This document shows positions 17,973-62,114 of a stretch of DNA of 64,000 nucleotides, piece after piece. A model generated the notes under the pieces. That model saw nothing but the letters and a program-made list of their open reading frames with translations, was not told where the DNA came from and ran no database searches. Where the stretch lies: positions 32,992 to 96,991 of the forward strand of contig LCIE01000002.1 of assembly GCA_001000865.1 (NCBI GenBank). Direction: 5' to 3'. The stretch is from Candidatus Collierbacteria bacterium GW2011_GWC2_44_18. GTDB lineage: Bacteria; Patescibacteriota; Microgenomatia; UBA1400; MFAQ01. Position 1 is the first letter of the stretch, and each line of letters opens with the position of its first letter. A program made the position numbers and the translations under genes.

Positions 17973-18040
17973 TGTCATCCCGCACCTTCCCGAGGAGTCT
18001 CCTTGTAGGTATTCCTGCGAGGAGACTCCTCATTGGTCTC
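17973..18040. repeat. Family-A variant palindromic element (GTCATCCCG...GGAGTCTCC/GGAGACTCC)
   Basis: Intergenic inverted repeat between the aminotransferase and the radical SAM gene. Confidence 0.55.
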
Positions 18041-18970: not shown

Positions 18971-18998
18971 TCGTCATTCCGGGCTTGACCCGGAATCC
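18971..18998. repeat. Family-A variant (GTCATTCCGGGCTTGACCCGGAATCC)
   Basis: Near-identical copy at 27708-27736. Confidence 0.75.
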
Positions 18999-19075
18999 AT
19001 CCCCTGGTACAATACCCCATAACGTTTTCGTCGCGCACTCAGGTACTTTGATATACATCAAGGAGATATTTCAAA

Positions 19076-26554: not shown

Positions 26555-27040
26555 ATGGTCAATAAAATTACCAAACAACTCGTCATTGCCAAAGCCAGCC
26601 ACGTACTTTCTTCACCGAGAAAGACGAATCTTGTTCTTAAAGCCATCGTTGGTCGTCCCGCATTATTGGCCATCAAACAGCTCACTGTAAATACCAAAAG
26701 AGCCGGTAAGCCGATCATCCAGCTCATCCAGCAGGCGGTGGGGAACGCTGTCTCACAATTTCAAGCCTCTCCTGACAGTCTCATCATCGATTCTGCCTTC
26801 GCTACCAAAGGTCGTGTTCTCAAGCGCGCTCATATCGGTGGCCGTGGCCGCACCAAACCGTACGAAAGAACTACTTCACATCTGACCCTCTCTGTAAGAA
26901 TTCCCTCGACCAAGGTTTCCACGCCCGTCATTGCGAGGAGCAAGGGCGACGCGGCAATCCCCGCCATCGAGGAACCGAAGAGTGTTAAGAAAGTCTCTAC
27001 CACCAAAAAAGTCATCAAACCTACCAACAAATCAAAATAA
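26555..27040 (+). CDS. rplV: 50S ribosomal protein L22 with a ~45 aa Lys-rich C-terminal extension partly encoded by a Family-A repeat
   Basis: L22 core followed by an extension. The repeat cgtcattgcgaggagcaagggcgacgcggcaatcc (26926-26960) is translated in-frame as PVIARSKGDAAIP. Confidence 0.9.
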   Translation: MVNKITKQLVIAKASHVLSSPRKTNLVLKAIVGRPALLAIKQLTVNTKRAGKPIIQLIQQAVGNAVSQFQASPDSLIIDSAFATKGRVLKRAHIGGRGRTKPYERTTSHLTLSVRIPSTKVSTPVIARSKGDAAIPAIEEPKSVKKVSTTKKVIKPTNKSK

Positions 27041-27707: not shown

Positions 27708-27736
27708 CTGTCATTCCGAGCTTGACCCGGAATCCA
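27708..27736. repeat. Family-A variant (GTCATTCCGAGCTTGACCCGGAATCC)
   Basis: Intergenic between rpsC and rplP. Confidence 0.75.
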
Positions 27737-28938: not shown

Positions 28939-28976
28939 TCGTCATTGCGCGTCTCGTACTCGAGCCAAAGCAATCT
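28939..28976. repeat. Family-A palindromic element
   Basis: cgtcattgcgcgtctcgtactcgagccaaagcaatctc. Confidence 0.8.
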
Positions 28977-29001
28977 CAAACAAATAAACCACAAAAAGAA
29001 T

Positions 29002-31404: not shown

Positions 31405-31450
31405 CGTCATTGCGCGATTCGGTACTCCGAACCAAAGCAATCCAGAAAAA
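31405..31450. repeat. Family-A palindromic element
   Basis: cgtcattgcgcgattcggtactccgaaccaaagcaatccagaaaaa. A near-identical copy lies inside miaA at 60663. Confidence 0.85.
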
Positions 31451-31484
31451 TATAAAATATAAAATATAAAATACAAAATAAAAA

Positions 31485-32003
31485 ATGGCATACTCAGGCA
31501 ACACCAATAATTCCAATCGAGGCGGCGGTCGTCCCGCACCCGAAGGTTTCGAGCAGGTTCTCGAAATTCGTCGTGTCAGCAAGAAGACACAGGGAGGCAC
31601 CAACGTCTCTTTTTCTGCACTCGTGGTTACCGGTGACAAAAAAGGTAAAGTCGGTCTTGGTTTAGCCAAAGCCCCAAACGTAGCCGATGCTATCAAAAAA
31701 GCTATCCGTCTCGGTAATCGCGATCTTGTTCAGGTTCCTTTGGTCGAAGGCACCATTCCTTACGAAACTATCTCCAAGTACGGTGCCGCCAAAGTTCTCT
31801 TCCGCCCGGCCCCCAAGGGTACCGGCCTCATCGCCGGCTCTTCTGTCCGCGCAGTGGTCGAAGCCGCCGGTATCACCGACATTGTTTGCAAGGTCATGGG
31901 TACCAACAACAAAACCAGCAACGCCAGGGCTACTTTCAAAGCCCTCAAACAAATCGAAGTTCTAGCCAAGAAATATCAAATGCTCAAGGCACTTAGAGCC
32001 TAA
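31485..32003 (+). CDS. rpsE: 30S ribosomal protein S5
   Basis: Sequence and gene order. Confidence 0.93.
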   Translation: MAYSGNTNNSNRGGGRPAPEGFEQVLEIRRVSKKTQGGTNVSFSALVVTGDKKGKVGLGLAKAPNVADAIKKAIRLGNRDLVQVPLVEGTIPYETISKYGAAKVLFRPAPKGTGLIAGSSVRAVVEAAGITDIVCKVMGTNNKTSNARATFKALKQIEVLAKKYQMLKALRA

Positions 32004-34312: not shown

Positions 34313-35593
34313 ATGAATAATATATTAGCTCCTTTGCGCGCCCTATTTAAGATAAAAGATCTTAGAAACAGATTGATTTTTACTGCTATTGTCATCGCCA
34401 TTTTCCGTTTGGTTGCCCACATCCCCGCGCCAGGGATCAACTTAGCCGCCCTCAAAGGACTCTTCGATTCATCTGCCTTTCTTTCTTTACTAGATGTCTT
34501 TTCCGGTGGCACTCTGACAAATTTTTCCGTCATGGCCCTTGGTCTCAATCCTTACATCAACGCCTCCATTATTATGCAGATGCTCGGCATGGTAGTTCCC
34601 AAGCTGGAAGAGCTTCAGAAGGAAGGCGACTACGGTCGCCAAAAAATCAATCAATACACTCGTCTTCTTACTATTCCACTTTGTTTCTTTCAGGGTATCG
34701 CTTTGATCATGCTTCTCCGGGGACAAGGACTTACTACTACTGCTGATCCGCTAAAGTTGGCTTCTATTGTTTTCACTCTTGCCGCCGGCACTTCTTTTTT
34801 AATCTGGCTCGGTGAACAATTAAATGAATACGGCGTTGGCAACGGTATTAGTTTAATAATCTTCGTTGGTATCGTCACTAGACTACCGGTCGCCGCCGCT
34901 CAAGTTCTTACCACTATCGATCCTTCCCAGATATTTACTTATTTAATCTTTGGTTTTTTTGCGGCCGCCTCTGTCTACGCTATCGTCCGAGTTGGGGAAG
35001 CCGTTCGGGAAGTTCCGATTCAATCAGCCAGACGCGGGGCTTCCTTCACTTCTGTCGTTGGCAATCACCTACCACTTCGTCTCAATCAGGCTGGCGTCAT
35101 CCCGATTATCTTTGCCGTTTCTTTCATGTTGATTCCTAACCTTTTAAGCCGTGTCTTTTCTGGTTCCAGCCAACCAGTTCTTGCTCAAATCTCCAGAAAT
35201 GTTGGGCTTTTCTTGGCACCTAATACGGTTCTTTATAATGTTCTTTATTTTGTCTTGGTTGTCGCTTTTTGTTATTTCTATACTGCAGTTGTTTTTAATC
35301 CGGAAAAAATTGCCAAAGATCTTCGCTCTTCCGGCTCCTTCATTCCCGGTGTTCGCCCGGGTCCCAACACAGTTGATTATCTCAACTTTGTTTTAAACAG
35401 AATTACTTTGGTAGGAGCCTCTTTCCTAGGTCTTGTCGCCATCTTCCCCTCCATTATTTCCGGAGTTACCGGCATCACCTCCATCGCCATAGGAGGAACG
35501 GGTATCTTAATTGTCGTTTCTGTTGTTTTGGAAATTCTTAAGACAATCAACTCTCAGCTCTACATGTACAGTTACGACAAATTTCTAGACTAA
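34313..35593 (+). CDS. secY: preprotein translocase subunit SecY
   Basis: 426 aa, 10 TM helices, spc-operon position. Confidence 0.93.
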
Positions 35594-35596: not shown

Positions 35597-35631
35597 TTGT
35601 CATTGCGAGGAGTACTCGACGCGGCAATCTG
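35597..35631. repeat. Family-A palindromic element
   Basis: ttgtcattgcgaggagtactcgacgcggcaatctg. Confidence 0.8.
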
Positions 35632-36210: not shown

Positions 36211-36250
36211 CGTCATTCCGAACCAAAACCCTACCTGTCGGCAGGAATCC
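36211..36250. repeat. Family-A variant element (GTCATTCCGAACC...CTGTCGGCAGGAATCC)
   Basis: Intergenic after adk. Confidence 0.7.
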
Positions 36251-36324
36251 CCACGGCTGAGATTACAGAAAAGGAGTGTGATATAATACCCTATATAGTC
36301 TTGTAATTTGATAAAGGAGCTAAC

Positions 36325-36709: not shown

Positions 36710-36748
36710 ATGTCTACAAGTTTCGCACTTACACCGTACCTAACAGAT

Positions 36749-36800
36749 GTCATGCCGGACCTGATAGGGCCGCTGGTCCCCGAAGGGGGAAATCCATCCC
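36749..36800. repeat. Family-A long variant (GTCATGCCGGACCTGATAGGGCCGCTGGTCCCCGAAGGGGGAAATCCATCC)
   Basis: Near-identical copy inside the CapA-fusion CDS at 52438-52493. Confidence 0.8.
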
Positions 36801-36834
36801 ATCACTCCGAATAAATAAATGTAAAATATACCCA

Positions 36835-39832: not shown

Positions 39833-39876
39833 CGTCATTGCGCGGTCGCCTAAGGCGACCAAAGCAATCCAGAAAA
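39833..39876. repeat. Family-A palindromic element
   Basis: cgtcattgcgcggtcgcctaaggcgaccaaagcaatccagaaaaa. Confidence 0.85.
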
Positions 39877-39920
39877 ATAAATATAAAATACACAATTTAC
39901 AATCTAAAATAATCTAAAAA

Positions 39921-42840: not shown

Positions 42841-42868
42841 CGTCATTCCGAGCGAAGTCGAGGAATCT
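42841..42868. repeat. Family-A variant (GTCATTCCGAGCGAAGTCGAGGAATCTC)
   Basis: Immediately after the rpsI stop. Confidence 0.7.
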
Positions 42869-42883
42869 CAAACCACAAAATCA

Positions 42884-42925: not shown

Positions 42926-43920
42926 ACAATAGACTTGTCGCAAAATAAGCAACATCACCTCCCCCTCCCCAGATATCAGGTTAACAAGTGTCTTTGGTAA
43001 TTGGTCGGGTAAAGTTGTAGAGGGCATATCTGTCGGCAAGAATATGGAAGTGTTTGAGTGCTCCAATGACATGTTCTACTCGTACTCTGATTGAGGATAT
43101 GGTTTGATTGGTTAGCTTGTCCATCTCAGGAAGTTCTTTCTTGTATGGTTTCTTGATTGGAAGAATCACCTTAGAGTGTGAACTTGATTCTTGTAGTCCT
43201 ACGTATCCTAAGTCAGCCAGACAAGTGGCTCCGGGCGGAGCCCGGAGAACTGTGCCATCATCCACGCACAACTGTTTGTCATGTCGTTTTCCCTCCACTG
43301 TTTGGGAGACAGCCAAAATTCTTTTGGTGTGTGGGTGGATGATGATTTGATTCTTGATCGTATGTTTCTTCTTTTTACCAGAGTAATAGAACTCTTGATT
43401 TTTCTTTGGTCTTTGTACTGCTCTCTCGGTGGCATCAATGATGAACTCAGAGAGATCAGGACAGATCTCGAGCATTCCCGCCATGGTACGGATCTTTCTT
43501 TTAGGTAGCCTAAGTTCATATCCTAGTGTTAACCAAAGCACTTCCTCCATAAATACCTTCCATCGATGGATAGTTTCCTTGTCTACCTCGAAGATTGTTT
43601 GAGCCAGGCGGAAAGTGGGATATGTTTTGTAGTAAAACAAGATGAAGAGTAATCTCTCTGAAGAAGTTCGGAGTACCGACCTTCTTCCTGCTCCCATTCC
43701 TCTGTCTCTGTCCCATCTCCACAGTTTGTGGTGTCGACTCTGTCGAAATCGAATATCAAAAAGTGGTAACAGTTTGTTAAACTTTTCCTGACTCATTCCA
43801 ATTACCGCTGGAAAAAGATCAGGATGTTTGAGAAGATAGAGTAGATTCATGGGCAGGAACTTACTAATATGGGGTCCTGCCCATAATCTTATCAGAGCTA
43901 ATTATGCGACAAGTCTAATA
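42926..43920 (-). mobile_element. IS5-family insertion sequence (~1.0 kb) with terminal inverted repeats
   Basis: Left end aatagacttgtcgcaaaat (42928-42942). Right end reverse complement attagacttgtcgcataat (43905-43917). A single DDE transposase ORF fills the interior. Confidence 0.7.
42981..43850 (-). CDS. IS5/IS4-superfamily DDE transposase (289 aa)
   Basis: N-terminal HTH region. KKKHTIKNQIII and DLGYVG motifs are typical of DDE_Tnp_1-type transposases. Confidence 0.75.
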   Translation of the reverse strand: MNLLYLLKHPDLFPAVIGMSQEKFNKLLPLFDIRFRQSRHHKLWRWDRDRGMGAGRRSVLRTSSERLLFILFYYKTYPTFRLAQTIFEVDKETIHRWKVFMEEVLWLTLGYELRLPKRKIRTMAGMLEICPDLSEFIIDATERAVQRPKKNQEFYYSGKKKKHTIKNQIIIHPHTKRILAVSQTVEGKRHDKQLCVDDGTVLRAPPGATCLADLGYVGLQESSSHSKVILPIKKPYKKELPEMDKLTNQTISSIRVRVEHVIGALKHFHILADRYALYNFTRPITKDTC

Positions 43921-43940
43921 GAAGGGGGACATCCAAGTAT

Positions 43941-43981
43941 TTCTGGATTCCGAGTCGCACTACGCTTGCCCGGAATGACAA
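43941..43981 (-). repeat. Family-A element in inverted orientation
   Basis: Reverse complement of ttctggattccgagtcgcactacgcttgcccggaatgacaa gives ttgtcattccgggcaagcg...ggaatccagaa. Confidence 0.65.
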
Positions 43982-44001
43982 ACTGCGAAAGTCGTAATTC
44001 T

Positions 44002-44052
44002 GTTGAATTGGATACATATCAAATAATGCCCAATCATGTTCATGTTGGCTAT
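44002..44052 (+). pseudogene. remnant of an IS200/IS605-type or REP-associated (RAYT) HUH tyrosine transposase
   Basis: Encodes VELDTYQIMPNHVHVG, which matches the TnpA/RAYT HUH block (e.g. ILELEVMPDHVHLL). No intact N- or C-terminal parts. Flanked by REP-like palindromes at 44054-44075 and 44146-44174. Confidence 0.35.
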
Positions 44053-44053
44053 C

Positions 44054-44075
44054 GGGTCGACGCGGGGGTCGACCC
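44054..44075. repeat. Family-B-related palindrome GGGTCGACGCGGGGGTCGACCC
   Basis: Perfect inverted repeat with GC-rich loop. Confidence 0.6.
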
Positions 44076-44145
44076 CTACAGTTCGAGAATATGCAAAAAG
44101 ATTGAAAACAATCCATTAAATTGGGAAAAAGACAAATTGTATTCC

Positions 44146-44174
44146 CCGTAGGGGCAGGCCCCCGCGCCTGCCCG
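44146..44174. repeat. Family-B REP-like palindrome
   Basis: ccgtaggggcaggcccccgcgcctgcccg. Confidence 0.75.
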
Positions 44175-44252
44175 TATAAATCCAACCACAACACAAAAAC
44201 CAACCACGCCTCAAAATCATTCTTCCCGTAGGGGTTTCATTTATGAAACCCG

Positions 44253-46271: not shown

Positions 46272-49200
46272 TTGACATCTCCTTACCCTGTAATTAAACT
46301 AAAATCATCGATGGGAAAAATAAAAACCTTCTTAGGTTCTTTGCGTCCTTGGCAGTTGGTCGGAATCTTGCTGGTTTCCTTAGGACTGCTCGCTTCCGTT
46401 ATTCTTGCTTCGCAATACCTTCAGCTCTCAGCCAAACTAAAGCTAGGCTCAGACGCCGGGCTGTTGTTGACGGCGGATCGACAAGACTCGTTAGGGACGT
46501 TTCAGGATTCAACTTTCACTCTCAAGTCGGATCAAGATCTTACCGTCGCCGGTCTCAAGAATAGTGTGACTTTCTTTCCCGAAATAGACTTCGACATTAG
46601 GGAAATCAGCCCTCGTCAATTTAGTATTTCCCCCAAGGCTCCTCTAAAGAACAACAGTCTGTATCGCGTCAAGGTAGTTTCCGACCAAAAAACTTTTTCC
46701 TGGGCATTCCAGACCAAAAACGATTTCCGGGTAGTCCAAACCCTACCTCGTGATCAAGCCACCTACGTACCCATAAATTCTGGTATCGAGATCACCTTTA
46801 GTCACGATAATTGGGATGACATAAGTTTGAAAGATGGAAATTTTGAAATTACCCCTTTTGCCGAAGGTCGTTTCGAACGTCACAAAAGAACTATTTCCTT
46901 TATTCCAGAGGGACTTGTTCCAAATACACTATATACGGTAAAAATCAAAAAAGGTCTTAAACTCAAAGGAACCAATGAAGTTCTCAAAGATGATTTTGTT
47001 TATCGTTTTGAAACCCAGTCTTCTTCCGGAGATAAGACTCAAATAAATTTTTCCAGAAGTTTTTATGAATTTTCTCCACCCGAAACTCCGGCTTTCGATA
47101 TCTACACTTCATCGACCGGCGTGGGCGAGGCCTCGGTAAAGGTTTATCAATACCCCAATGTTCAAGATTTTACTTCCGACTTTACTACCAAGCTGGCTAT
47201 TCCGGCGTGGGCGACCAATTCACTTCGCTTAAATCGTCGTCCGGTTTCGGGGCTAAACAAAGTTCTGGATTTTCCGGCATCAATTCAAAAACAATCATAC
47301 ACCAATTATTTCTTACTTCCTCAAACTTTACCCAAAGGTTTTTACCTGATTGAAGCCACGATCGATAATATCACCACCCAAGCTTTGGTTCAAATAACCG
47401 ACCTCTCCGCCTATCTCACCGTCAGCGGTACCAAGACACTCGTTTGGGTCAACGATATTGGTACTGGCCAGCCTGTTTCTGGTGCAAGTGTCAGTTTCGC
47501 CGGCAAAGGACAAGAAACCGGTCAGGATGGTGTCGCTTACTTTGATACTCCGACCGAAAAGATAACAGAAAATTCCAATCTTATTGGAGTTAGTCATGGC
47601 AGTAATGCTCTATATTTACCTGTTCAAAATGTTAGGTACTACTACGATGCTGATTATCAAAATTCCCGTCGCGTGGCCGATAAATACTGGAACTATTTTT
47701 ACACCGATCGTCCGGTCTACCTACCCACTGACATTCTCAAGTTCTGGGGTTTACTTAGGGATCGGGACAATCTAAATCAAAATCAAAAATTCACCTTAGA
47801 AGTTACTCGGTCAGATTACACCAGCTGGGACTTCCATCCGATGGTGCTTTTTACCAAAGATTTCGAAACCAGTGATCTGGGAACTTTTATTGGCGACATT
47901 CCTTTGGCGAGCTACAATCCGGGCTGGTATGGTATCTCCCTTAAGATCAATGGCACTATCGTCTCCAGTTCTTCGTTTTCGATTGAAACTTACACCAAGC
48001 CAGCCTACAAACTTACCCTCACTCCTTCCAAAAAAGCCGCTATTGTCGGTGAAATAATCTCTTTTTCCGGTGAAGCTACCTTCTTCGAAGGCTCCCCAGT
48101 CGTGGGGATGGATTTAAAGGTTACCGGGGCTCAAAATAGTAATTTCACCACTGATTCTCTCGGTCGATTTAATTTCAATTACCTGGTCTCGAAAAATTCC
48201 TACAACTATTTACCGGAGTATCGAAATTTTGTTGTCCTTCCCACCCTTCCCGAGGAGGGTATGATTCAAGTGAATTCCTCTATTGCCGTTTTTGATTCAT
48301 CACTAGTCTTGGGTTATTCAAAAACTGAGTCAAAAAATTCCACTGGAAAGGTTGAGATCGATCTTCGTCAGGTTGATACCGGAAAATTTACTCAGTCTTC
48401 AGACATACAAGACATTTTTGCTCCGGCTTCAAACCGGCTGGTTACTGGCACCTTAGTGGAAAATCAATGGAATCGACGGGAAGTTGGTACCTATTACGAT
48501 TTTATTAACAAGGTAACCTCTCCCAAATATGCATACGATCGAGTTCAAACCAAAATTGCCGACATCTCTTTAACCACCGACTCAAAAGGGAAGGCGGTCT
48601 ACGAATTTCCTGTTGGAGAAAACAAGTCATACGACATTCTCTTATATGCCACTGACGATCAAGGAAGAACTACCAGCCAAAACGTTTATCTTACCGGCTC
48701 GGTCAACAATGCCGAGTTGAATAACTATGTTTATTTAAAAACCGACAAGGAGGGTCAAAATTCCAGCCGATATGCTATTGGCGAGTCAGTAAACCTCACC
48801 CTTATGCGAGGAGAATTACCTCTGGAGTCCTCCGGAAACGATAAATTTCTTTATTTATTTTCTCAAAGGGGCCTTAATTCGTATCAGTTAGCCAGCGATG
48901 GGAAAATAAGTTTCAAATATCCCACAGCCTTTGTACCCAATGTCTTTGTTCGGGCGGTGAGATTTACCGGGAAAACTTATCAAGTATCGGAAAATCTTTA
49001 TCTATACTTTGATACCACCTCCAAAAAACTTTCCCTGGGGATTACTCAAGATAAACCCTCATACCTTCCGGGAGATACCGCCAAACTTTCCGTACTGGTA
49101 AAAGATCAAACCGGATCCGGCGTCTCTTCAGAGGTCAATCTCAGTCTTACAGATGAAGCATACAACGCTTTAAATTCCACTTTTGTGGATCCGTTATCTG

Positions 49201-51530
49201 GAATCTATCGTTCCTTGGGCGACGATATTATTGCTTCATACCAATCTCATCAATATCCTCTGGATAGTTCCGGGGCTGAAGGTGGTGGTTGTTTCTTGGC
49301 GGGTACACAGATATTGATGGAAGACGGAAAAACAAAAGAAATTCAGGATATAAAGGTGGGAGATATAGTCAAGTCATTTCTAAGTCCTCTGTCGAGGAAA
49401 ATAGCAACTGCCAAAGTTTCCAAAGTTTTCACGCATCAGGTAGTAGGTTATTTGGTAATTAACAATCACCTAAGAGTCACCGGAGAACACAATTTATATA
49501 TCAATGGTCGGTTCATGACCGCCTCTGAGGTAAAAGTTGGGGATTTCTATCTTGATACTCATGGGGAGTACCAAAAGATATTCTCCATCGAAAGTCGATC
49601 TGGAATAAATACGGTCTACAATTTCACGGTAGAAAAATTAAACACATACTTCGCCGAAGGATTTTATGTCCACAACGAGAAGGGTCGCGAATTATTCGTG
49701 GACAATGCTTTTTTCAGCAGTGTCCGTACCGGTAGTGATGGCCGTGCCAGCGTTGATGTTAAGCTTCCGGATAATCTTACCTCTTGGAAAATTACCTCCC
49801 AAGGAGTTACTGCCGATCTGAAAGCAGGTGTCGACTCTTCTCTTCTGGTTGTTAAACAACCCTTCTTCGTAGATGTAGTCATGAACACTGAGTATCTGGT
49901 TGGCGAACGACCGGAAGTTTCGGTTCGTGCCTATGGTGAAGGACTATCCACTGGGGACCAAGTAATCCTAAAAATTCAATCTGATACTTTAGGAATAGAT
50001 AAAAGTCTTAACATAAAAGCCTTTGAAAGTTCTAAAGTGGATCTTGGTGTCCTCAAAGAAGGCTCCCACAAAATTACCATTTCGGGTATTTCCGGTAGTC
50101 TTACGGATAAGTTAATCAGAAAAATGAATGTAGTCAAGTCTCGCCTCAAAGCAGTCAAATCGGTCAGTGTTTCTTTGGCAGAAGGTACCAAGCCGGAAGG
50201 TTCGCCAGATTCGTCAACGACCTTAATCTTTTCCGACCAAAGCCTCGGTCGTTATTTCCCACCCCTTTCAAACCTGGCTTACACTTGGGGGGATCGCTCA
50301 GATCAGCGTCTAGCCCGCCATCTTTCGCAGTCTATCATCAAGAAGCTTTTCGACGATTCTATCAGTCCGGAAACACTCGACCTCACCGCCTTTCAAACTC
50401 CGGATGGTGGTTATGCACTCTTTCCCTACTCTGGAGCAGACCTGGAGCTCTCTGCCTTCGTAGCGTCCTTGGCAAAAGAAAAGGTTGATCTCATTGGTTT
50501 GGGAAACTATTTTTACAAAGAATTTTCCCAATCAAAAGACCTCGACACTGCCTCCATGTCGCTTTTTGGACTGGCAAGTTTAGACGAACCGGTACTACTA
50601 TTAATAAACAATCTTTCGGGCGAAAAAGATCTCAGCCCCTTGTCCAGAATCTACTTGGCTTTGGCTCAAGCCAAGATCGGGGATACCGAAATGGCCCGCA
50701 TTTTCTACAAGACTCTCATGTCGGAGTTTTCCGAAAAACAAGATTCATTAATCTTGATGAAAGTCGGATCAGACAAAGATAGTTATCTCCAGGCCACTTC
50801 ACTTACTTCTGCTCTTTCCTCCTTGTTGGGTGAGCCGGAAGCTGACAGTCTGCTTTCTTACACCCTGGCTAATAGCGCGAAAGACATCTTACTAGTTGCT
50901 CCTCAGATGATGGCCATTTCCTATCAGATCGAAAATATTAAACCCCAACCGGTCTCTTTTTCATACACTCTAAATGGCAAAAAGATACCCAAAAAACTTG
51001 AAAAGGGTCAAGTTTTCAAGCTTGAGTTATCGTCCACTGATCTATCCGGAATAAGTTTTTCCGATCTTGTTGGCAATGTCGGTTTGTCTTCAACTTTCGC
51101 GGTTCCTCTGGATCCAAAAACTGCCCCCATAAGTTCGTCGGTTCAGTTAGGTCGGAGTTACTCTGTTCGTGGTGCTATCACCAACACTTTCTCCACCAGC
51201 GATCTTGTCAAAATTTCACTTCCAGTTGCCTATGCGGATATCTCTCAAGACGGTTGTTACCAAGTCTCGGATCTACTTCCTTCGGGGTTGAGACCGATCA
51301 CTTCGATTTATAGTTTCGGGCTGGATTCCACAAAGACTTGGTATCCATACGAGATAAATGGCCAAAAGGTTAGTTTCTGTGTAGGAAATGGAAGTAAAGA
51401 AAAAACCATCAACTACTATGCGAGGGTCGTCTCCGGTGGCGACTTCAAAGCCGAAAGTGCCTTGATTCAATCCTTAATTTCACCTTCAGTCTTCAACCTT
51501 TCTCCCTCCGGCTCGGTCATTATCAAATGA
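46272..51530 (+). CDS. alpha-2-macroglobulin-family surface protein (1752 aa), thioester-less, with a Hint/BIL domain in place of the bait region
   Basis: N-terminal signal-anchor helix and repeated MG-type beta-sandwich domains (e.g. LVQITDLSAYLTVSGTKTLVWVNDIGTGQPVSGASV). The post-bait A2M block FVDNAFFSSVRTGSDGRASVDVKLPDNLTSWKI...LVVKQPFFVDVVMNTEYLVGE aligns with human A2M [32 protein letters not shown]...[21 protein letters not shown] (recalled from memory). No CxEQ thioester at the expected position (LAYTWGDRSDQ instead). Confidence 0.7.
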   Translation: MTSPYPVIKLKSSMGKIKTFLGSLRPWQLVGILLVSLGLLASVILASQYLQLSAKLKLGSDAGLLLTADRQDSLGTFQDSTFTLKSDQDLTVAGLKNSVTFFPEIDFDIREISPRQFSISPKAPLKNNSLYRVKVVSDQKTFSWAFQTKNDFRVVQTLPRDQATYVPINSGIEITFSHDNWDDISLKDGNFEITPFAEGRFERHKRTISFIPEGLVPNTLYTVKIKKGLKLKGTNEVLKDDFVYRFETQSSSGDKTQINFSRSFYEFSPPETPAFDIYTSSTGVGEASVKVYQYPNVQDFTSDFTTKLAIPAWATNSLRLNRRPVSGLNKVLDFPASIQKQSYTNYFLLPQTLPKGFYLIEATIDNITTQALVQITDLSAYLTVSGTKTLVWVNDIGTGQPVSGASVSFAGKGQETGQDGVAYFDTPTEKITENSNLIGVSHGSNALYLPVQNVRYYYDADYQNSRRVADKYWNYFYTDRPVYLPTDILKFWGLLRDRDNLNQNQKFTLEVTRSDYTSWDFHPMVLFTKDFETSDLGTFIGDIPLASYNPGWYGISLKINGTIVSSSSFSIETYTKPAYKLTLTPSKKAAIVGEIISFSGEATFFEGSPVVGMDLKVTGAQNSNFTTDSLGRFNFNYLVSKNSYNYLPEYRNFVVLPTLPEEGMIQVNSSIAVFDSSLVLGYSKTESKNSTGKVEIDLRQVDTGKFTQSSDIQDIFAPASNRLVTGTLVENQWNRREVGTYYDFINKVTSPKYAYDRVQTKIADISLTTDSKGKAVYEFPVGENKSYDILLYATDDQGRTTSQNVYLTGSVNNAELNNYVYLKTDKEGQNSSRYAIGESVNLTLMRGELPLESSGNDKFLYLFSQRGLNSYQLASDGKISFKYPTAFVPNVFVRAVRFTGKTYQVSENLYLYFDTTSKKLSLGITQDKPSYLPGDTAKLSVLVKDQTGSGVSSEVNLSLTDEAYNALNSTFVDPLSGIYRSLGDDIIASYQSHQYPLDSSGAEGGGCFLAGTQILMEDGKTKEIQDIKVGDIVKSFLSPLSRKIATAKVSKVFTHQVVGYLVINNHLRVTGEHNLYINGRFMTASEVKVGDFYLDTHGEYQKIFSIESRSGINTVYNFTVEKLNTYFAEGFYVHNEKGRELFVDNAFFSSVRTGSDGRASVDVKLPDNLTSWKITSQGVTADLKAGVDSSLLVVKQPFFVDVVMNTEYLVGERPEVSVRAYGEGLSTGDQVILKIQSDTLGIDKSLNIKAFESSKVDLGVLKEGSHKITISGISGSLTDKLIRKMNVVKSRLKAVKSVSVSLAEGTKPEGSPDSSTTLIFSDQSLGRYFPPLSNLAYTWGDRSDQRLARHLSQSIIKKLFDDSISPETLDLTAFQTPDGGYALFPYSGADLELSAFVASLAKEKVDLIGLGNYFYKEFSQSKDLDTASMSLFGLASLDEPVLLLINNLSGEKDLSPLSRIYLALAQAKIGDTEMARIFYKTLMSEFSEKQDSLILMKVGSDKDSYLQATSLTSALSSLLGEPEADSLLSYTLANSAKDILLVAPQMMAISYQIENIKPQPVSFSYTLNGKKIPKKLEKGQVFKLELSSTDLSGISFSDLVGNVGLSSTFAVPLDPKTAPISSSVQLGRSYSVRGAITNTFSTSDLVKISLPVAYADISQDGCYQVSDLLPSGLRPITSIYSFGLDSTKTWYPYEINGQKVSFCVGNGSKEKTINYYARVVSGGDFKAESALIQSLISPSVFNLSPSGSVIIK
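49290..49676 (+). other. Hint (bacterial intein-like, BIL-type) domain embedded in the A2M-family protein
   Basis: Begins GGG-CFLAGTQILMEDGK (block A). Has the TxxH block B (RVTGEHNL). Ends NTVYNFTVEKLNTYFAEGFYVHN (blocks F/G). The residue after the terminal Asn is Glu, not Cys/Ser/Thr. About 129 aa with no homing endonuclease. Confidence 0.75.
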
Positions 51531-53341
51531 AACTCTGGCAGTTATTTATTGGTTTTCTACCGATTATCGTCATTGCGACCTGCCTGCCGGCAGGCAGGGT
51601 TTTACTCGAACCGAAGCAATCTCCGAGCTTGAACCCTACACCTATTCGTGGGGTTAACCAACCCTTTGACACCTCCTTCGCTTATGATAATCGCACTTTT
51701 CTACCTGCCGTCGCTCAAAATACTGGCGTTGGTAACGGAACCTCTCCTAGGGTGGTTGTTCTCCCTCATCACCTGACCGCTTCTACCCTGATTGCTCAAG
51801 GCTTGTCGCTTTTAAAAACACCTCCACCCAAAACTATTGTTCTTTTATCTCCCAATCATGCCAACACCGGACAGTGCGCTATAGTTTCCTCCAAAAATAA
51901 TTGGGATACCCCATTTGGTCAGGTCCTAGTCGATCAATATCTATTGAATGATTTTCTGGACACCAAAACCATCTGTTTGGATGACTCGGCTGTGGCTATA
52001 GAACATGGTCTTGCCGGATTGGTTCCCTTCATCAAATATTATCTCCCGAATACAAAAATTGTTCCTTTTGCCCTTAAAAATGACCTCGATCCAATATTGT
52101 TAAATAATTTTACTCAAAAATTAGTTTCACTTTCTACAAAAACCGTTATCTTAGGCTCAATAGACTTTTCCCATGGTCTGTCCAAAAGTGAATCGACCAA
52201 AAAAGACGCTGTCACCGAGAAGTTACTATTGACCTTTAACTATCCGGAACTTCTCAAACTTTCATCCGAGTATCTCGACTCTCCGGTTTCTTTGGTCGCC
52301 ATTCTCAAAATTCTAGACTCGGAAAAAACCAAACCGAACATTCTAGCCCACAGTGACTCATCGGTTTTCAATAACCAACCAATGAACGTCACTTCATATT
52401 TTTTGATCTCCGGCGGCAGTAGTTCATCATCGACCATTCGTCATCCCGGACTTGATAGGGCCGTTGGTCCCCGAAGGGGGAGATCCATCCCCTCTGGAAA
52501 TTCCTTCACTCTCCTCTTCGGCGGTGACGTCATGCTTGGTCGCTCCGTCAATACCAGAATGATAAAGTACCAAGATTTCTTATGGCCATTCCAAAAAATA
52601 TCAGCTCTTCTTTCTTCTGCGGACTTATCTATTATCAATCTCGAGTCGCCTTTCCGTTCTGGTTGCCGACCGACCGATGGTGGTATGGTTTTTTGCGCCG
52701 ATCCTCGATCAGTCGAAGGTTTGGTTACGGCCGGCATCGATGTTGTTAATATCGCCAATAATCACATTTTCAATCAAGGCCAGGAGGGCATAGATGAAAC
52801 CATCGCCATATTAAATAATAACAACATTGCTTTCGTAGGGGCGGACCCCCGCGTCCGCCCGACAAACGACCCCCGCGTCGATCCGCAAAAATCGACATTC
52901 ACTCTCAAAAATACCAAAATCACTTTCTTGGGCTTTACCGACATTGCCTCCGTTTCCCAAGAAATTGCGACCGCCACTCCAGACAATATTAGAGCTCAAA
53001 TATCTGCCGCAAAAAAAGATTCCGATTTGGTTATCGCTACTTTCCACTGGGGCAATGAATATAGTCATCGGTCACTTCATCAGGTGGAACTCGCTCATCT
53101 AGCCGTTGATTCTGGTGCCGATGTCGTCATCGGCCACCACCCGCACTGGGTCCAGGAAGTAGAAACCTATTTGGGTAAACCCATTTACTATTCTCTGGGA
53201 AATTTAGTTTTCGATCAAATGTGGTCAGAAGAAACCAGGACAGGTCTAGTAGTCAAGTTAAACTTCTCTGGCAGTACCCTAATCAGTCAAGAACAAATTC
53301 CTATAAAAATTTTCGACTATGGTCAGCCAGCTACTCTATAA
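51527..53341 (+). CDS. fusion protein: MEMO1/AmmeMemoRadiSam-B-like domain plus CapA/PgsA-type metallophosphatase domain (604 aa), carrying three in-frame repeat insertions
   Basis: MEMO-like motifs LPHHLTAS, SPNHANTG, EHGLAGLVPFIKYY, SIDFSHG. CapA-like motifs LLFGGDVMLGRSV, NLESPF, NIANNHIFNQGQEG, TFHWGNEY, VVIGHHPHWVQE. ATGA overlap with the A2M gene stop. Repeat copies at 51568-51598, 52438-52493 and 52834-52861 are read in-frame. Confidence 0.65.
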   Translation: MKLWQLFIGFLPIIVIATCLPAGRVLLEPKQSPSLNPTPIRGVNQPFDTSFAYDNRTFLPAVAQNTGVGNGTSPRVVVLPHHLTASTLIAQGLSLLKTPPPKTIVLLSPNHANTGQCAIVSSKNNWDTPFGQVLVDQYLLNDFLDTKTICLDDSAVAIEHGLAGLVPFIKYYLPNTKIVPFALKNDLDPILLNNFTQKLVSLSTKTVILGSIDFSHGLSKSESTKKDAVTEKLLLTFNYPELLKLSSEYLDSPVSLVAILKILDSEKTKPNILAHSDSSVFNNQPMNVTSYFLISGGSSSSSTIRHPGLDRAVGPRRGRSIPSGNSFTLLFGGDVMLGRSVNTRMIKYQDFLWPFQKISALLSSADLSIINLESPFRSGCRPTDGGMVFCADPRSVEGLVTAGIDVVNIANNHIFNQGQEGIDETIAILNNNNIAFVGADPRVRPTNDPRVDPQKSTFTLKNTKITFLGFTDIASVSQEIATATPDNIRAQISAAKKDSDLVIATFHWGNEYSHRSLHQVELAHLAVDSGADVVIGHHPHWVQEVETYLGKPIYYSLGNLVFDQMWSEETRTGLVVKLNFSGSTLISQEQIPIKIFDYGQPATL

Positions 53342-53496
53342 GACCTGACCTCTAAAGTACTCAACTGTCCTCTCCTACCTTCCAGAGAAGTAAAAACCTA
53401 GGGTACTTTGCCACTTATCGTTGTTCGTATCACTTGTAAAATAATTATTAATATCTATAATTAATTCTGGTATTTAAATCGGGAAAATTATCAATT

Positions 53497-54598: not shown

Positions 54599-54675
54599 TC
54601 GTCATTGCGAGGAGTCAGGCAACCTGCCTGCCGTAGGTCGAAGATATCGTGTATTTCACGATCAGGTCTCACTCC
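54599..54675. repeat. Family-A long composite element (GTCATTGCGAGGAGTCAGGCAACCTGCCTGCCGTAGGTCGAAGATATCGTGTATTTCACGATCAGGTCTCACTCC)
   Basis: The 59-nt distal part recurs almost exactly inside the miaA CDS at 60172-60230. Confidence 0.85.
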
Positions 54676-54693
54676 ACAAAATAAAAATCCATA

Positions 54694-58793: not shown

Positions 58794-59938
58794 TGCCGTC
58801 AGTCTTCATCAACACTTTTGGTTGCCAGGCGAACAAGTCCGACTCCGAGCGTATACTTGGGGACTATCTCTCACGCGGGTACGTCGAAGTTGACAATTGG
58901 AGACTTGCCGACGAAATCGTCATCAACACTTGTTCTGTCCGTCAGTCAGCCGAAGATCGCGTTACCGGATTCCTTTTGAATGTGGACAAGTTTTTCGCTG
59001 GGAGTCAGAGACCAAAAATAATTCTCACCGGCTGCATGCTCCATTTCAATGAAAAAGAAATAAGGACCCTTCTGCCCCAGATCGACGAAATTCTACCTAT
59101 TGGCGAAGTCGGGTTCAATCAAAAGGCGATCAGAAAAGAAAAGGACAAGGCTTTTATTCCCATTTCCTCTGGCTGTAATTCTTTTTGCACTTTTTGTATT
59201 GTGCCATTTTCCCGAGGTCGGGAACGTTCTCGTCCAATTGACGATATAGTTCGGGAAGTTGCAGAGTTATCCAAAGAAGGCTATACCGAAATCACCCTGT
59301 TGGGTCAAAACGTGAATTCTTGGGGCTTGGAAAAAGTCGGCGTGGCCCTCAGGAAGATGTTCATGGACAAAGATACCTTCAACCCCGACATTATTCCTTC
59401 AAACCAGTCTCAATATTTCAAACCACAAGACACTCCACCCTTTGTTACACTACTAAGGGAAATAAGCAAAATTGACGGCATTCAAAAGATTAGTTTTTTT
59501 ACGAGCAACCCTTGGGACTTCTGGGACGAGTTGGTTGATGAAATTTCGGCGAATCCCAAGATAGATAGGTTCATTCATTTACCGGTTCAGTCCGGCAGCA
59601 ATCGGATTCTCAAACTTATGAATAGGGGATACACTCAAGAATCCTACCTCGATTTAATTAATCAGATTAAAGCCAAAATCCCTGATGCGGTTTTTGGCAC
59701 AGATATAATCGTCGGCTTTCCTGGCGAAACGGATAAAGACTTTCAAGATACTCTGAATTTAGTTAAGGAAGTGGGTTTCAAAGTAGCCTTTGTCGCCCGT
59801 TATTCGCCTCGTCCCGGTACGGTTTCCGCCAAACTTTTCCCGGACGATATTCCGGCCAGGATCAAGAAAGAACGCTGGGAAATTTTGGATCAAATTGCCA
59901 ACAAAGACAATCTCAAATCTCGACCCATCGTCCCCTAG
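58793..59938 (+). CDS. miaB: MiaB-family radical SAM methylthiotransferase (short, TRAM domain apparently absent)
   Basis: N-terminal MTTase Cys triad (FGCQANKSD...NTCSV) and radical SAM CNSFCTFC. ATGA overlap with hup. Adjacent to miaA. Confidence 0.75.
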   Translation: MPSVFINTFGCQANKSDSERILGDYLSRGYVEVDNWRLADEIVINTCSVRQSAEDRVTGFLLNVDKFFAGSQRPKIILTGCMLHFNEKEIRTLLPQIDEILPIGEVGFNQKAIRKEKDKAFIPISSGCNSFCTFCIVPFSRGRERSRPIDDIVREVAELSKEGYTEITLLGQNVNSWGLEKVGVALRKMFMDKDTFNPDIIPSNQSQYFKPQDTPPFVTLLREISKIDGIQKISFFTSNPWDFWDELVDEISANPKIDRFIHLPVQSGSNRILKLMNRGYTQESYLDLINQIKAKIPDAVFGTDIIVGFPGETDKDFQDTLNLVKEVGFKVAFVARYSPRPGTVSAKLFPDDIPARIKKERWEILDQIANKDNLKSRPIVP

Positions 59939-59943
59939 TTTCC

Positions 59944-59984
59944 CCGTCATTGCGAGGAGCGGAGCGACGTGGCAATCCATCTGG
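59944..59984. repeat. Family-A palindromic element
   Basis: ccgtcattgcgaggagcggagcgacgtggcaatccatctgg. Confidence 0.8.
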
Positions 59985-60019
59985 AAAATAATAAATAAAT
60001 GTGAAATGTACAATTTAAA

Positions 60020-61117
60020 ATGAAAAATATTTTAGTCATCTGTGGACCAACTGCCTCCGGCAAAACCTCTCTCGCCCTTTCCGTTGCTAAAGAATTAACC
60101 GAACGTCATTCCGGGCTCGGCCCGGCCGCTGGTACCCGAAGGGGTAAATCCACCATTCCGTCATTGCGAGGGCAACCTGCCTGCCGTAGGTCGAAGATAT
60201 CGTGTATTTCACGATCAGGTCTCACTCCATCAGGATCAGTCAACATCCTCTCCGCCGACTCCAGACAGATATACCAGGGTCTGGACATCGTCACCGGCAA
60301 GGACATTCCTGCAGATCTCCCTCCAAACATTAGTTTTTTTGGTTTGGATTTGGTCGAGCCAAACCAAGCCTACAATCTCGCGGACTTCGTCAGTTATTCA
60401 CAGAAAATTATTCAAAGCTCCATTAAAGAGAATGTCCCCTTAATCATTGTTGGGGGAACCGGTTTGTATCTGAAAGCTATTACTTCAGATCTTCTCAACG
60501 TCCACGTTCCTCCGAATATTGATCTTCGTCGTGATCTAGAGAGGTTAGACCTTAAGACTTTGCAGTCTCGTCTCTTGGAATTAAATCCCAATAAACTCGC
60601 CTCCCTAAACAACTCAGATCTCCACAATCCCCGCCGTCTCATCCGCGCCATCGAAATATCATCGTCATTGCGCGATTCGACTTCCATAGATACCCCTTTA
60701 GAGGGTACGAACCAAAGCAATCCATCCTCTCTGGATCGCCACGCTTCGCTCACGATGACAGATATTTCTTTTCTCTGGATCGGACTACATCAAGACAAAG
60801 AGATTCAAAAGGCAAAAATTCGCCAAAGGGTTTTAGATCGTCTAGACTACGGCGCCATTGAAGAGGTTGAAAACTTGATGATAAAGTATCCCAACCACCG
60901 CCCCCCCATTTTTACCAGTCTTGGTGTCCAAGAAACCAGCAAGTTCTTGCACCAAGAAATCACTCGAGAAACACTTATCCATTTATGGACTGCCTCCGAA
61001 ATAGCTTATGCCCGGAGACAGATGGTCTGGTTCAAGAAACAACCCGGTATAGTTTGGTATGATAAAAGTACGATAGACAGCCACCTAATCGCTAAGCTGA
61101 CAGAAATATATAAATAA
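60020..61117 (+). CDS. miaA: tRNA dimethylallyltransferase carrying in-frame insertions of four Family-A repeat copies
   Basis: P-loop ICGPTASGKTSLAL, SADSRQIYQGLDIVTGK and RRLIRAIE motifs. Extra segments RHSGLGPAAGTRRGKSTIPSLRGQPACRRSKISCISRSGLTP (60104-60232) and SSLRDSTSIDTPLEGTNQSNPSSLDRHASLTM (60663-60760) are encoded by repeat copies. Confidence 0.85.
   Translation: MKNILVICGPTASGKTSLALSVAKELTERHSGLGPAAGTRRGKSTIPSLRGQPACRRSKISCISRSGLTPSGSVNILSADSRQIYQGLDIVTGKDIPADLPPNISFFGLDLVEPNQAYNLADFVSYSQKIIQSSIKENVPLIIVGGTGLYLKAITSDLLNVHVPPNIDLRRDLERLDLKTLQSRLLELNPNKLASLNNSDLHNPRRLIRAIEISSSLRDSTSIDTPLEGTNQSNPSSLDRHASLTMTDISFLWIGLHQDKEIQKAKIRQRVLDRLDYGAIEEVENLMIKYPNHRPPIFTSLGVQETSKFLHQEITRETLIHLWTASEIAYARRQMVWFKKQPGIVWYDKSTIDSHLIAKLTEIYK
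60104..60232. repeat. two tandem Family-A elements inside miaA, read in-frame
   Basis: gtcattccgggctcggcccggccgctggtacccgaaggggtaaatccacc followed by gtcattgcgagggcaacctgcctgccgtaggtcgaagatatcgtgtatttcacgatcaggtctcactcc. Confidence 0.85.
60663..60760. repeat. two Family-A elements in opposite orientations inside miaA, read in-frame
   Basis: gtcattgcgcgattcgacttcc...ggtacgaaccaaagcaatcc, then the reverse complement of gtcatcgtgagcgaagcgtggcgatccagagagg. Confidence 0.8.
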
Positions 61118-61118
61118 A

Positions 61119-62114
61119 ATGATCAAAAAGAAACACATTGTCTTTGATTTCTCCATTGGCAGTATCTTTTGGGTGCTTTTTTCGCTCGCCGCCGCTTATA
61201 TCCTCATGAAGCTTACCAGTGTCATCGCTCTATTGTTTATTGCCATTCTCATCACCCTAGCGGTTTGTCCTTTGGTGGATCATCTTGAAAAGTACCGAAT
61301 AAACCGAGCTCTTTCCTCGATAGTTATATTACTAGCAACATTTGGAACCATTATTTTTGCCATAGTCTCTCTTGCAGCCCCTCTTTTGGATCAAACCCAG
61401 CTATTTCTTCAAAAGTTGCCGGCGATAATTGACTCCGTTAGTCCGATCAAGTTGGCCGACGGTTCACTAACAGCTCAGTTTGCAAACGTACCCGGGAAGG
61501 TGCTTACCTTTGCGCTGGATACCTTCTCCGCTTTCATTACCGCCTTTACTGTTATCGTTATCAGCTTTTACATGATCCAGGACCTCCACAATTTGGAGAA
61601 GCATCTCAAATTCTGGTTCGGAGACAAAGGTTACCGCTACTTCGTGATTGCTGAGAAATTGGAGATTCAAATTGGTTATTGGGTGAGAGGTGAACTATTG
61701 CTTATGCTGTTGGTTGGTCTTTTAAGTTACTTTGGTTATCTCATCATCGGACTTCCTTTCGCTATCCCCTTGGCCTTTATAGCTGGTATGCTGGAACTCA
61801 TTCCAAATATTGGTCCTACCATAGCTACGATTCCTGCCGTCCTCGTCGGTTTTTCTATCTCCACCGGTCATGGTGTCGCCGCTCTTGTTGTTTCCCTCGT
61901 TGTTCAACAATTGGAGAACAATCTTATTGTTCCGAAGATCATGCAACGGGTGGCTGGACTAAATCCCATCATTACTATCGTCGCCATCATGATTGGCTTC
62001 CAGCTAGGAGGCCCTCTCCTCGCCATCCTGGCTCTGCCCACCGTGCTCAGTGCCCGAGTCATTCTAGGCCACGTCAGGCTGAACAAAGACACCACCATCC
62101 CCGAAATCGACTAA
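61119..62114 (+). CDS. AI-2E family (PerM/UPF0118) transporter
   Basis: 331 aa, 7-8 TM helices in the typical AI-2E arrangement. Confidence 0.7.
   Translation: MIKKKHIVFDFSIGSIFWVLFSLAAAYILMKLTSVIALLFIAILITLAVCPLVDHLEKYRINRALSSIVILLATFGTIIFAIVSLAAPLLDQTQLFLQKLPAIIDSVSPIKLADGSLTAQFANVPGKVLTFALDTFSAFITAFTVIVISFYMIQDLHNLEKHLKFWFGDKGYRYFVIAEKLEIQIGYWVRGELLLMLLVGLLSYFGYLIIGLPFAIPLAFIAGMLELIPNIGPTIATIPAVLVGFSISTGHGVAALVVSLVVQQLENNLIVPKIMQRVAGLNPIITIVAIMIGFQLGGPLLAILALPTVLSARVILGHVRLNKDTTIPEID

Follow-up and report, generated by a model that had tools for sequence, protein, structure and literature searches.

The repeat units that lie inside the tRNA dimethylallyltransferase gene miaA of Candidatus Collierbacteria bacterium GW2011_GWC2_44_18 (a 64,000-nt stretch of contig LCIE01000002.1, assembly GCA_001000865.1, positions 32,992 to 96,991, hereafter the window) have their closest described relatives in the CGTC-tagged repetitive extragenic palindromes (REPs; subtypes CGTC-1 to -4; Di Nocera, De Gregorio & Rocco 2013, BMC Genomics 14:522, PMC3733652). 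These are defined by a CGTC tag (variants TGTC and CCTC), an AT-initiated stem of 8-9 bp, a loop of 4-5 nt (variable in Bradyrhizobium CGTC-1) and a CCA-like unpaired 3′ tail. They lie less than 20 nt from the 3′ end of the upstream open reading frame (ORF), between co-directional or convergent genes, and frequently form inverted dimers. No dedicated transposase is known for them, and several subtypes may coexist in one genome. The peptides read from intragenic REPs have been tabulated (VIPAKAGI, SFPRKRES, CHSRESGNP, RHPGLDPGS), REPs are found in excess in nucleic-acid enzymes, and in Rickettsia conorii CGTC-1 and CGTC-4 are the Rickettsia palindromic elements (RPEs) RPE-6 and RPE-4 (PMC3733652). 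According to the summaries in PMC10969869 and PMC3733652, RPEs (Ogata et al. 2000, Science 290:347; consensus families RPE-1 to RPE-10) stand in frame in many unrelated housekeeping ORFs at presumably fold-compatible positions, and the classic RPE-1-type elements are about 100-150 bp long with a conserved peptide reading.

Judged by their sequence features, the segments found in the window belong to these known superfamilies and not to a new family: most are CGTC-tagged REPs, and the element read as VGADPRVRP is a GTAG-tagged REP. The likeness to CGTC-tagged REPs covers the tag, the AT stem, the CCA tail, the inverted dimers, the 3′-end position, the coexistence of subtypes and the in-frame intragenic copies, and it includes an exact Bradyrhizobium-type unit (CGTCATTGCGAGGAGCGAAGCGACG..GCAATCCA). 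The 5′ tag is CGTC in 17/23 units and TGTC in 6/23. Stems start and end with AT in essentially all units, and the outer stems vary together with their partners (ATTGC/GCAAT, ATTCC/GGAAT, ATCCCGG/CCGGGAT). The 3′ tail is ..AATCCA in most units and ..AATCTCA or TCTCACTCCA in a subfamily. An 8-bp stem is found in units 18972-18999 and 27709-27736; in most others a 5-bp outer stem is combined with bulges or an inner hairpin. Two units have CTTGA as their loop, and the interiors of the others are long or nested, as in the Bradyrhizobium-type unit, with which they have the exact 24-mer in common. Nine intergenic units begin 2-13 nt past the stop codon of a co-oriented upstream gene. Most units are singletons, inverted dimers being represented by the doublet 60663-60760 within miaA and the palindromic unit 1489-1526. 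In-frame insertion of REPs or RPEs is already known outside Rickettsia (PMC3733652). What is added here is a host from the Patescibacteria, or Candidate Phyla Radiation (CPR), outside the five phyla of that survey; a large proportion of intragenic units (7/23) in a genome that, as in CPR, is presumed to be small; many units with long, nested or mosaic interiors instead of loops of 4-5 nt; and recurrent use of the same protein loops, recolonised across a whole CPR order.

Like RPEs, the units of the window stand in frame within conserved, presumably functional genes. They differ from RPEs, as these are summarised in the papers cited above, in being 28-77 nt long, in being read in all three frames and in not being confined to one genus. 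The parallel with Rickettsia that a preliminary description of the window had drawn is more than an analogy, since the units fit the CGTC-tagged REPs; the link comes from the equation of CGTC-1 and -4 with RPE-6 and -4 (PMC3733652), not from a comparison of consensus sequences. GTAG-tagged REPs (a 5′ GTAG tetranucleotide and an imperfect, GC-rich palindrome of 20-40 nt) and REP doublets forming hairpins (REPINs), which are mobilised by REP-associated tyrosine transposases (RAYTs; Nunvar 2010; Bertels & Rainey 2011, PMC3116915) encoded by a single-copy gene with flanking REPs, are matched by the VGADPRVRP element (GTAGGGGCGGACCCCCGCGTCCGCCC) in the GTAG head and the GC-rich 8-bp stem. The head GTAGGGGCGGACCCCCGCGTCCGCCCG has six copies in the window (784, 8002, 32464, 44052 on the minus strand, 44147 and 52834), and intragenic GTAG REPs giving "VGA..." peptides are present in the literature. 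Unlike the extragenic REPs of those systems, the copy at 52834 lies inside a catalytic-domain gene, and no RAYT (Y1 HUH transposase) gene was found among the scanned ORFs of the window. Bacterial interspersed mosaic elements (BIMEs) are mosaic REP clusters of enterobacteria, extragenic and with defined Y/Z motifs. [quoted passage not shown] In contrast to MITEs (terminal inverted repeats (TIRs) of 15-30 bp, target-site duplications, 70-300 bp), the units are shorter single stem-loops with an asymmetric tag and tail, and direct repeats flanking the catalogued units were not evident. The literature searched on CPR or Patescibacteria with palindromic elements or REPIN/RAYT systems yielded nothing relevant (RepRanger 2025 is without Patescibacteria), and no paper quoting the unit sequences or peptides was found, the string matches being primer coincidences.

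The best explanation of the intragenic units, to which we assign a probability of about 0.8, is that they are copies of CGTC and GTAG REPs read through as disordered loops, with the fold of the host protein kept. In miaA, both repeat blocks reported in the preliminary description, 60104-60232 (insert 1) and 60663-60760 (insert 2), are real. Unit a of insert 1 has kindred copies at 36749-36803 and 52440-52494. Insert 2 is an inverted doublet with tails facing inward, a layout shared with alphaproteobacterial copies. Part of unit b (60171-60229) is identical at 59 of 59 positions to intergenic 54618-54676; this match had been described as near-identity of 60172-60230 with 54617-54675, one nucleotide off and with the identity understated. 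Such identity between a genic and an intergenic copy points to copying or conversion in the recent past.

The miaA reading frame is intact. Frameshifts and internal stops are absent, and the catalytic motifs and invariant alignment columns, including the P-loop and the DSRQ motif, are retained, so that the pseudogenisation named earlier as the case against in-frame insertion was not found. The product covers positions 1-243 of 243 of the Pfam IPPT profile (E 9e-45). A sequence search of PDB matched it to the solved structures 2qgn/3exa, 3d3q, 3crm and 2zm5/3foz in two pieces, residues 3-27 (P-loop and helix) and 75-354 (the remainder); the approximately 47 residues between these pieces correspond to 1-2 residues in the crystal proteins. 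Independent ENA and JGI assemblies yielded the exact 365-aa protein on 12 contigs, and the inserts are therefore no assembly artefact. Over 5-14 kb, three of these loci match the window with 99.98-100% identity. Named homologs of the protein place the organism in Candidatus Collierbacteria (Microgenomates, CPR). Loci L002-L004, compared for indel polymorphism among the 12 contigs, were identical to the window and thus uninformative on unit mobility.

The window protein was aligned with 120 homologs. Site 1, between A-K-x-L and N-I-L-S-x-D-S, comprises three residues (e.g., PKA) in about 95 of the 120 and 48 in the window; lengths of 7-78 residues are confined to the closest, Collierbacteria-like group. 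Between RAIEI and F-x-W-I-G-L, site 2 has a baseline of 16-18 residues and reaches 37 in the window. The frame is unbroken, as first described, but the net gain is about 55-60 residues and not roughly 75, because orthologs already hold a variable linker of 16-18 aa at site 2. The other case named against insertion, unrelated ortholog segments of equal length, applies in part at site 2, orthologs having a shorter unrelated linker there. The extra residues of ortholog MiaA proteins are repeat read-outs: SLRGAKRRGNLTP, HSGLDPESR, VIPDLIRDP, VIPAKAGIH, CHCEERSDVAIS, HSRESGNLYRS, VIARSKAMRQS and VGAIHESP. Published intragenic CGTC-1 peptides (PMC3733652) recur among them, and the supplement of that survey, searched for miaA or ribosomal proteins, listed none. 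The DNA of orthologs L005 (Collierbacteria RIFOXYB2_FULL_46_14) and L006 carries like units at both sites.

Genes and orthologs differ in the frame in which they read one and the same head, GTCATTGCG, and all three frames are used (TCA TTG CGA as SLR, GTC ATT GCG as VIA, CGT CAT TCC as RHS), giving SLRG, VIA or RHSG read-outs. Hence the conserved entity is the DNA and not a peptide motif. The 3′ end at site 1 (..AATCTCACTCCA(C/T)CA, read "NLTPP"; ..TCTCACTCCA(C/T)CA in unit b) is common to the window, L005 and L006, and the interiors differ, which suggests a single old colonisation followed by internal turnover. At site 2, distant Microgenomates carry unrelated units while the neighbours of those lineages have none, suggesting repeated arrivals. 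In L006 (5190-5330, MiaA ortholog P0014), the host sequence SVHILSADS is duplicated between units, a second copy, RVTILSADSRQ, following after more units, a pattern suggesting that the repeats mediated a duplication of the coding DNA beside them at site 1.

An AlphaFold2 model of MiaA, built from a 32-sequence alignment, has a mean predicted local distance difference test score (pLDDT) of 77.7. Values below 50 are found at residues 33-70 and 220-245, which are both inserts, and in a five-residue stretch (158-162); the remainder is confident. Both inserts (pLDDT ~31-46) are modelled as coil, the first lying between helix 15-30 and strand 74-78, the second between helix 204-221 and strand 250-257. 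The model retrieves MiaA crystal structures (Foldseek E ~1e-18; target-normalised TM-score 0.68-0.88). From the topology of the P-loop fold, the α1-β2 loop that accommodates insert 1 would lie away from the P-loop active site. Rfam gave no match in the whole window at gathering thresholds nor in 59900-60800 at E<=5, so the inserts are not explained by a known RNA family or intron.

Similar insertions are found in rplV and in the Memo/PGA_cap gene (ORF 51527-53341), as the preliminary description had proposed. The L22 domain occupies aa 12-114 of the rplV product, and the unit falls past it, in the C-terminal extension. The lysine-rich tail is itself ancestral in the group; lineages differ in carrying VIARS..AI, VIPS..EESH or LPAGRQA segments, and the tails of P0124, P0126, P0130 and many others have no repeat segment. 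In the Memo/PGA_cap protein (Memo aa 67-291, PGA_cap aa 328-564) all three copies are present, including the one that encodes VGADPRVRP. The baseline of the inter-domain linker is about 10 aa, and ortholog P0242 has the same insert there as the window. Aligned with the sister Collierbacteria ortholog (L005), the REP within PGA_cap corresponds to a clean gap of 13 aa, other lineages having different GTAG-REP peptides at this site. Among 30 orthologs, all three sites hold either nothing or other repeat peptides. Pfam coverage is full-length for L22 and PGA_cap and spans positions 29-265 of 269 for Memo. The ortholog alignments thus bear out lineage-specific additions at the MiaA, L22 tail, Memo and PGA_cap sites, and the interpretation given in the preliminary description is supported. 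Its term "essential genes" is loose, and miaA is not strictly essential in model bacteria. At 52834-52840 the REP head GTAGG supplies Val-Gly codons that are native in orthologs (VGLG, IGHG, VGRG), an overlap that is a hint of microhomology or of GTNGG as a preferred target. The units and associated features are listed in Table 1.

Table 1. Repeat units and associated features, in positions of the 64,000-nt window.
Feature	Position	Strand	Remarks
miaA (tRNA dimethylallyltransferase)	60020-61117	+	intact ORF, 365 aa; hosts four repeat units
Insert 1, unit a	60104-60159	+	CGTC-tagged REP (CGTCATTCCGGGCTCGGCCCGG), nested hairpin (CCGCTGGTACCCGAAGGGGTA), AATCCA tail; read as RHSGLGPAAGTRRGKSTIP
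Insert 1, unit b	60159-60232	+	composite CGTC unit, 3′ end TCTCACTCCA; read as SLRGQPACRRSKISCISRSGLTPS
Insert 2, forward CGTC unit	60663-60721	+	type of 31405-31445, loop replaced by a 25-28 nt hairpin; read as SSLRDSTSIDTPLEGTNQSN
Insert 2, inverted partner unit	60724-60760	-	TGTCATCGTGAGCGAAGCGTGGCGATCCA on minus strand
Intergenic twin of insert 1 unit b	54600-54676	+	12-nt head and 59 identical nt in common; 6-nt indel
Canonical intergenic CGTC unit	59945-59979	+	7 nt past miaB-like stop codon, 42 nt ahead of miaA start
CGTC unit in lysine-rich rplV C-terminal tail	26926-26961	+	ORF 26555-27040; read as PVIARSKGDAAIP
CGTC unit, Memo/PGA_cap N-terminus	51568-51623	+	nested CCTGCCTGCCGGCAGGCAGG palindrome; read as VIATCLPAGRVLLEPKQS
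CGTC composite unit, Memo-PGA_cap inter-domain linker	52439-52494	+	read as RHPGLDRAVGPRRGRSIP
GTAG-tagged REP and partial second copy, inside PGA_cap domain	52834-52889	+	read as VGADPRVRPTNDPRVDPQ, contains VGADPRVRP
Intergenic CGTC unit	85-115	+	
Intergenic fully palindromic CGTC unit	1489-1526	not assigned	tag at both ends
Intergenic CGTC unit	6737-6765	+	GCGAAGC core
Intergenic mosaic	7989-8102	+	4 nt past stop codon; CGTC head, GTAG REP 8002-8035, CGTC unit with nested CCTGCC palindrome 8042-8102
Textbook CGTC unit	18972-18999	+	CGTC, 8-bp stem ATTCCGGG, loop CTTGA, CCA
Intergenic TGTC-tagged unit	27709-27736	+	13 nt past stop codon
Intergenic CGTC unit	28940-28977	+	8 nt past stop codon
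Intergenic CGTC unit	31405-31445	+	7 nt past stop codon; nested hairpin fold
Intergenic TGTC unit	35598-35631	+	5 nt past stop codon of ORF 34313-35593
Intergenic CGTC unit	36211-36252	+	5 nt past stop codon
Intergenic composite unit	36748-36803	+	type of 52439-52494 and 60104-60159
Intergenic CGTC unit	39833-39872	+	10 nt past stop codon
Intergenic CGTC unit	42841-42870	+	2 nt past stop codon
TGTC unit, repeat-rich spacer in minus-strand gene block	43946-43980	-	co-oriented with block genes
Complete insertion sequence (IS) element	42930-43917	not assigned	DDE transposase ORF 42981-43850(-); DDE_Tnp_4 1.5e-22, DDE_Tnp_1, HTH_Tnp_4

Where shuffles predict 0.85 copies of the motif GTCATTSCG, the window has 21. 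A stricter detector, which asks for the tag, an arm of 5 nt, the complement of that arm no more than 115 nt away and then C, gave 18 matches against 0.68 expected; it replaced an earlier hairpin detector with a 6-nt arm, which had missed most units. A match at 14938, inside the large ORF 12046-15753, is probably due to chance. By inspection, at least 23 CGTC-family units and six units of a second family, starting GTAGGGGC, were catalogued. CPR bacteria are presumed to have very little intergenic space, and 90.7% of the window is coding; only 7/23 CGTC units lie inside confirmed genes (binomial P = 4e-12), from which it follows that coding insertions are mostly removed or avoided. Across the units, 69 of 87 sense frames (~80%) are without a stop, and where a composite unit has a stop in one frame, the genic copy uses another. 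None of the six intragenic sites (two in miaA, one in rplV, three in Memo/PGA_cap), five of which are internal, has a stop in the frame used, and the downstream domain follows in frame. The orientation of the units follows that of the genes, including the single unit in the minus-strand block. The 101-aa ORF 43898-44203(-), which overlaps that TGTC unit and was considered as a further host gene, is probably spurious, having no Pfam match and consisting almost entirely of repeats.

Two further features accompany the units. An AT-rich conserved stretch (CCAGAAAAATAAATATAAAATA...) follows many intergenic CGTC units and reaches the next start codon (31442-31486, 39859-39917, 59984-60028, 107-135); unit and tract may form a cassette, possibly promoter-like or similar to a ribosome-binding site. 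The core GCGAAGC is present in several units (6737-6765, 42841-42870, 60724-60760 on the minus strand). We take this sequence to be an unusually stable DNA mini-hairpin, and such stability may be behind the wide conservation of the unit sequence.

The shared unit is widely distributed. The exact 24-mer GTCATTGCGAGGAGCGAAGCGACG was found in at least 120 stretches of reference genomes, its hosts including Bradyrhizobium, sphingomonads, Oscillospiraceae, Bacteroidales, Planctomycetes, Nitrospirae, Omnitrophica, Spirochaetes, Chloroflexi and Daviesbacteria. Phyla beyond the 2013 survey are Firmicutes, Planctomycetes, Nitrospirae, Omnitrophica, Chloroflexi, Marinimicrobia and CPR. The 24-mer is also present in 93 stretches of IMG/VR contigs (phage DNA or host flank), and its alphaproteobacterial copies form inverted doublets, as in insert 2 of miaA. 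The only transposase found among the scanned ORFs of the window is that of the DDE-type IS element, which is located in the repeat-rich spacer and has 21-nt TIRs (42930-42950 and 43897-43917). It was rejected as the mobiliser of the units, its TIRs being unrelated to the CGTC and GTAG unit ends.

With regard to mechanism only, it is possible, though doubtful, that the units are not transposed at all and that homologous recombination, gene conversion or templated hairpin repair spreads and renews them, old single colonisations being repeatedly overwritten. The common ends and different interiors of MiaA site 1 across Collierbacteria would fit this, as would the L22 tail copies, mostly in one frame and one position with variable interiors, and the 59-nt identical core beside a common head and a 6-nt indel. 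CGTC REPs have no dedicated transposase in the published survey either (PMC3733652), and among the scanned ORFs of the window no Y1 transposase was found, the sole IS having unrelated TIRs. However, different unit types and frames occur at MiaA site 2, in the Memo linker and at the PGA_cap site in distant lineages whose neighbours have none, so that repeated de novo arrivals are needed, and the exact 24-mer in many phyla and viral contigs implies real mobility at some level.

It is unlikely that the repeat peptides have been exapted, with basic segments (SLRGAKRRGNLTP, GTRRGKS, RRSK) adding RNA contacts or partner-binding loops and being kept by selection on the protein. The hosts do include a tRNA-modifying enzyme and a ribosomal protein, many read-outs are rich in Arg and Lys, the "NLTPP" end stands in one frame across Collierbacteria, and REPs are in excess in nucleic-acid enzymes (PMC3733652). 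Yet the same DNA gives unrelated peptides in different frames, the insert sequences are highly variable between close orthologs and are predicted to be disordered (pLDDT ~31-46), and Memo/PGA_cap, an enzyme not acting on RNA, was struck three times. As for "NLTPP", the DNA consensus of the unit tail accounts equally well for its conservation.

That the inserts are left untranslated, through RNA processing or a programmed translational bypass of the hairpin of the kind known from T4 gene 60 and the mitochondrial "byp" elements, is very improbable. The units are capable of forming hairpins, are GC-rich compared with their flanks and are co-oriented with transcription, but the six intragenic sites are in frame and free of stops, neither of which a bypass needs (five internal sites would all be in frame by chance with a probability of ~(1/3)^5 = 0.4%), the searches brought up neither an Rfam family nor an intron-like feature, and the hairpins of the coding copies are weak. 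Repeats do confuse assemblers, and in contig L001 the identity rises from ~75% to 100% precisely where insert 1 has its 3′ edge, but mis-assembly, or decay of miaA and the other hosts into pseudogenes, can be practically dismissed in view of the exact protein on 12 contigs, the three near-identical loci, the uninterrupted ORFs with full-length Pfam matches for IPPT, L22 and PGA_cap (Memo 29-265/269) and the invariant residues kept.

Several points weigh against the explanation by REP copies read through as loops. Many units depart from the published stem of 8-9 bp and loop of 4-5 nt. At site 2 of MiaA, the repeat DNA partly replaces the native linker of 16-18 aa and is not a pure addition. Translation of the inserts is supported by the preservation of the frame, and it is on this sequence evidence that the peptides are probably made and tolerated. 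The folding energy of the coding copies is not better than that of shuffled sequences (z -1.0 to -1.3), in comparison with -3.1 for intergenic 54600-54676 and -2.1 for intergenic 31405-31445. Since the palindromes of the coding copies are short and partly decayed and their DNA folding gave no significant stability, no strong palindromes are claimed inside miaA; the word "palindromic" in the preliminary description is weak for the coding copies. A pair of filled and empty sites from near-identical strains was not found, which leaves insertion junctions and target duplications undefined. The sole contig that lacks insert 1, L001 (JGI Ga0209518_1034050), may be a chimera: compared with 59400-62012 of the window, it is 100% identical from 60238 on and only ~75% identical upstream, the switch coinciding with the 3′ edge of the insert 1 repeat block. 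Its divergent left half also lacks the intergenic unit 59945-59979. L001 and its protein P0001 were therefore rejected as an empty site for insert 1, the junction being either an assembly chimera at the repeat or a real recombination junction. Finally, the search for a mobilising enzyme covered part of the ORFs of the 64-kb window.

If the units are REP copies read through, their pattern could be understood as follows. Most lie just 3′ of stop codons, co-oriented with the genes, and a minority inside ORFs. The surviving intragenic units are those in tolerant loops, inter-domain linkers or tails, with a net length that is a multiple of three and a stop-free frame, the latter being easily had because ~80% of the sense frames are open. 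Such units would be transcribed and translated as disordered, often basic peptide loops, with the fold of the host enzyme kept. A colonised site may stay a landing pad on which the ends persist (e.g., ..AATCTCACTCCA, "NLTPP", at MiaA site 1 across Collierbacteria) and nested insertion, deletion and conversion between copies renew the interiors, producing a hypervariable loop at a fixed position. A broader scenario, which we consider improbable, is that the CGTC and GTAG REPs of CPR are actively mobile without a dedicated transposase and prefer occupied sites, generating hypervariable, often basic loops in MiaA, L22 and Memo-CapA, some of them exapted (e.g., for RNA contacts), and that the shared unit is a pan-bacterial, horizontally moving hairpin element.

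Other observations were made in the window. A separate 27-nt repeat (GTTGTC.TCCC.C.CCTTCCCGAGGAG) has copies at 17971-17997, 48231-48257 and 53364-53390, one of them inside an ORF for an alpha-2-macroglobulin (A2M)-like protein. This 1752-aa ORF (46272-51530) contains, between the A2M_BRD and A2M domains, a HINT/intein-like segment (aa 1007-1135, ~49290-49676; PT-HINT 4.8e-9, Hom_end_hint, Intein_splicing), which may be a mini-intein or a pretoxin-HINT module. The S7 ORF 15972-16673 is listed with 233 aa, its S7 domain starting from aa 77; either the start codon was mis-called by the longest-ORF rule, or the protein has an N-terminal extension.

The analysis adds the Candidate Phyla Radiation to the hosts of a known but little-studied phenomenon, REP-type repeats that are probably translated within housekeeping proteins. 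Many of the odd "extensions" and low-complexity loops of CPR proteins (such as SLRGAKRRGNL, VIPAKAGIH, HSGLDPES and VGADPRVRP) are repeat DNA, probably read through, and not lineage-specific domains, which is relevant to the annotation of CPR proteins, to alignment trimming and phylogenomics and to the prediction of their structures. Loops that are reused time and again would amount to a natural map of where MiaA, uL22 and CapA-like enzymes are permissive, and the compact genomes of CPR may offer an approach to how CGTC REPs move.

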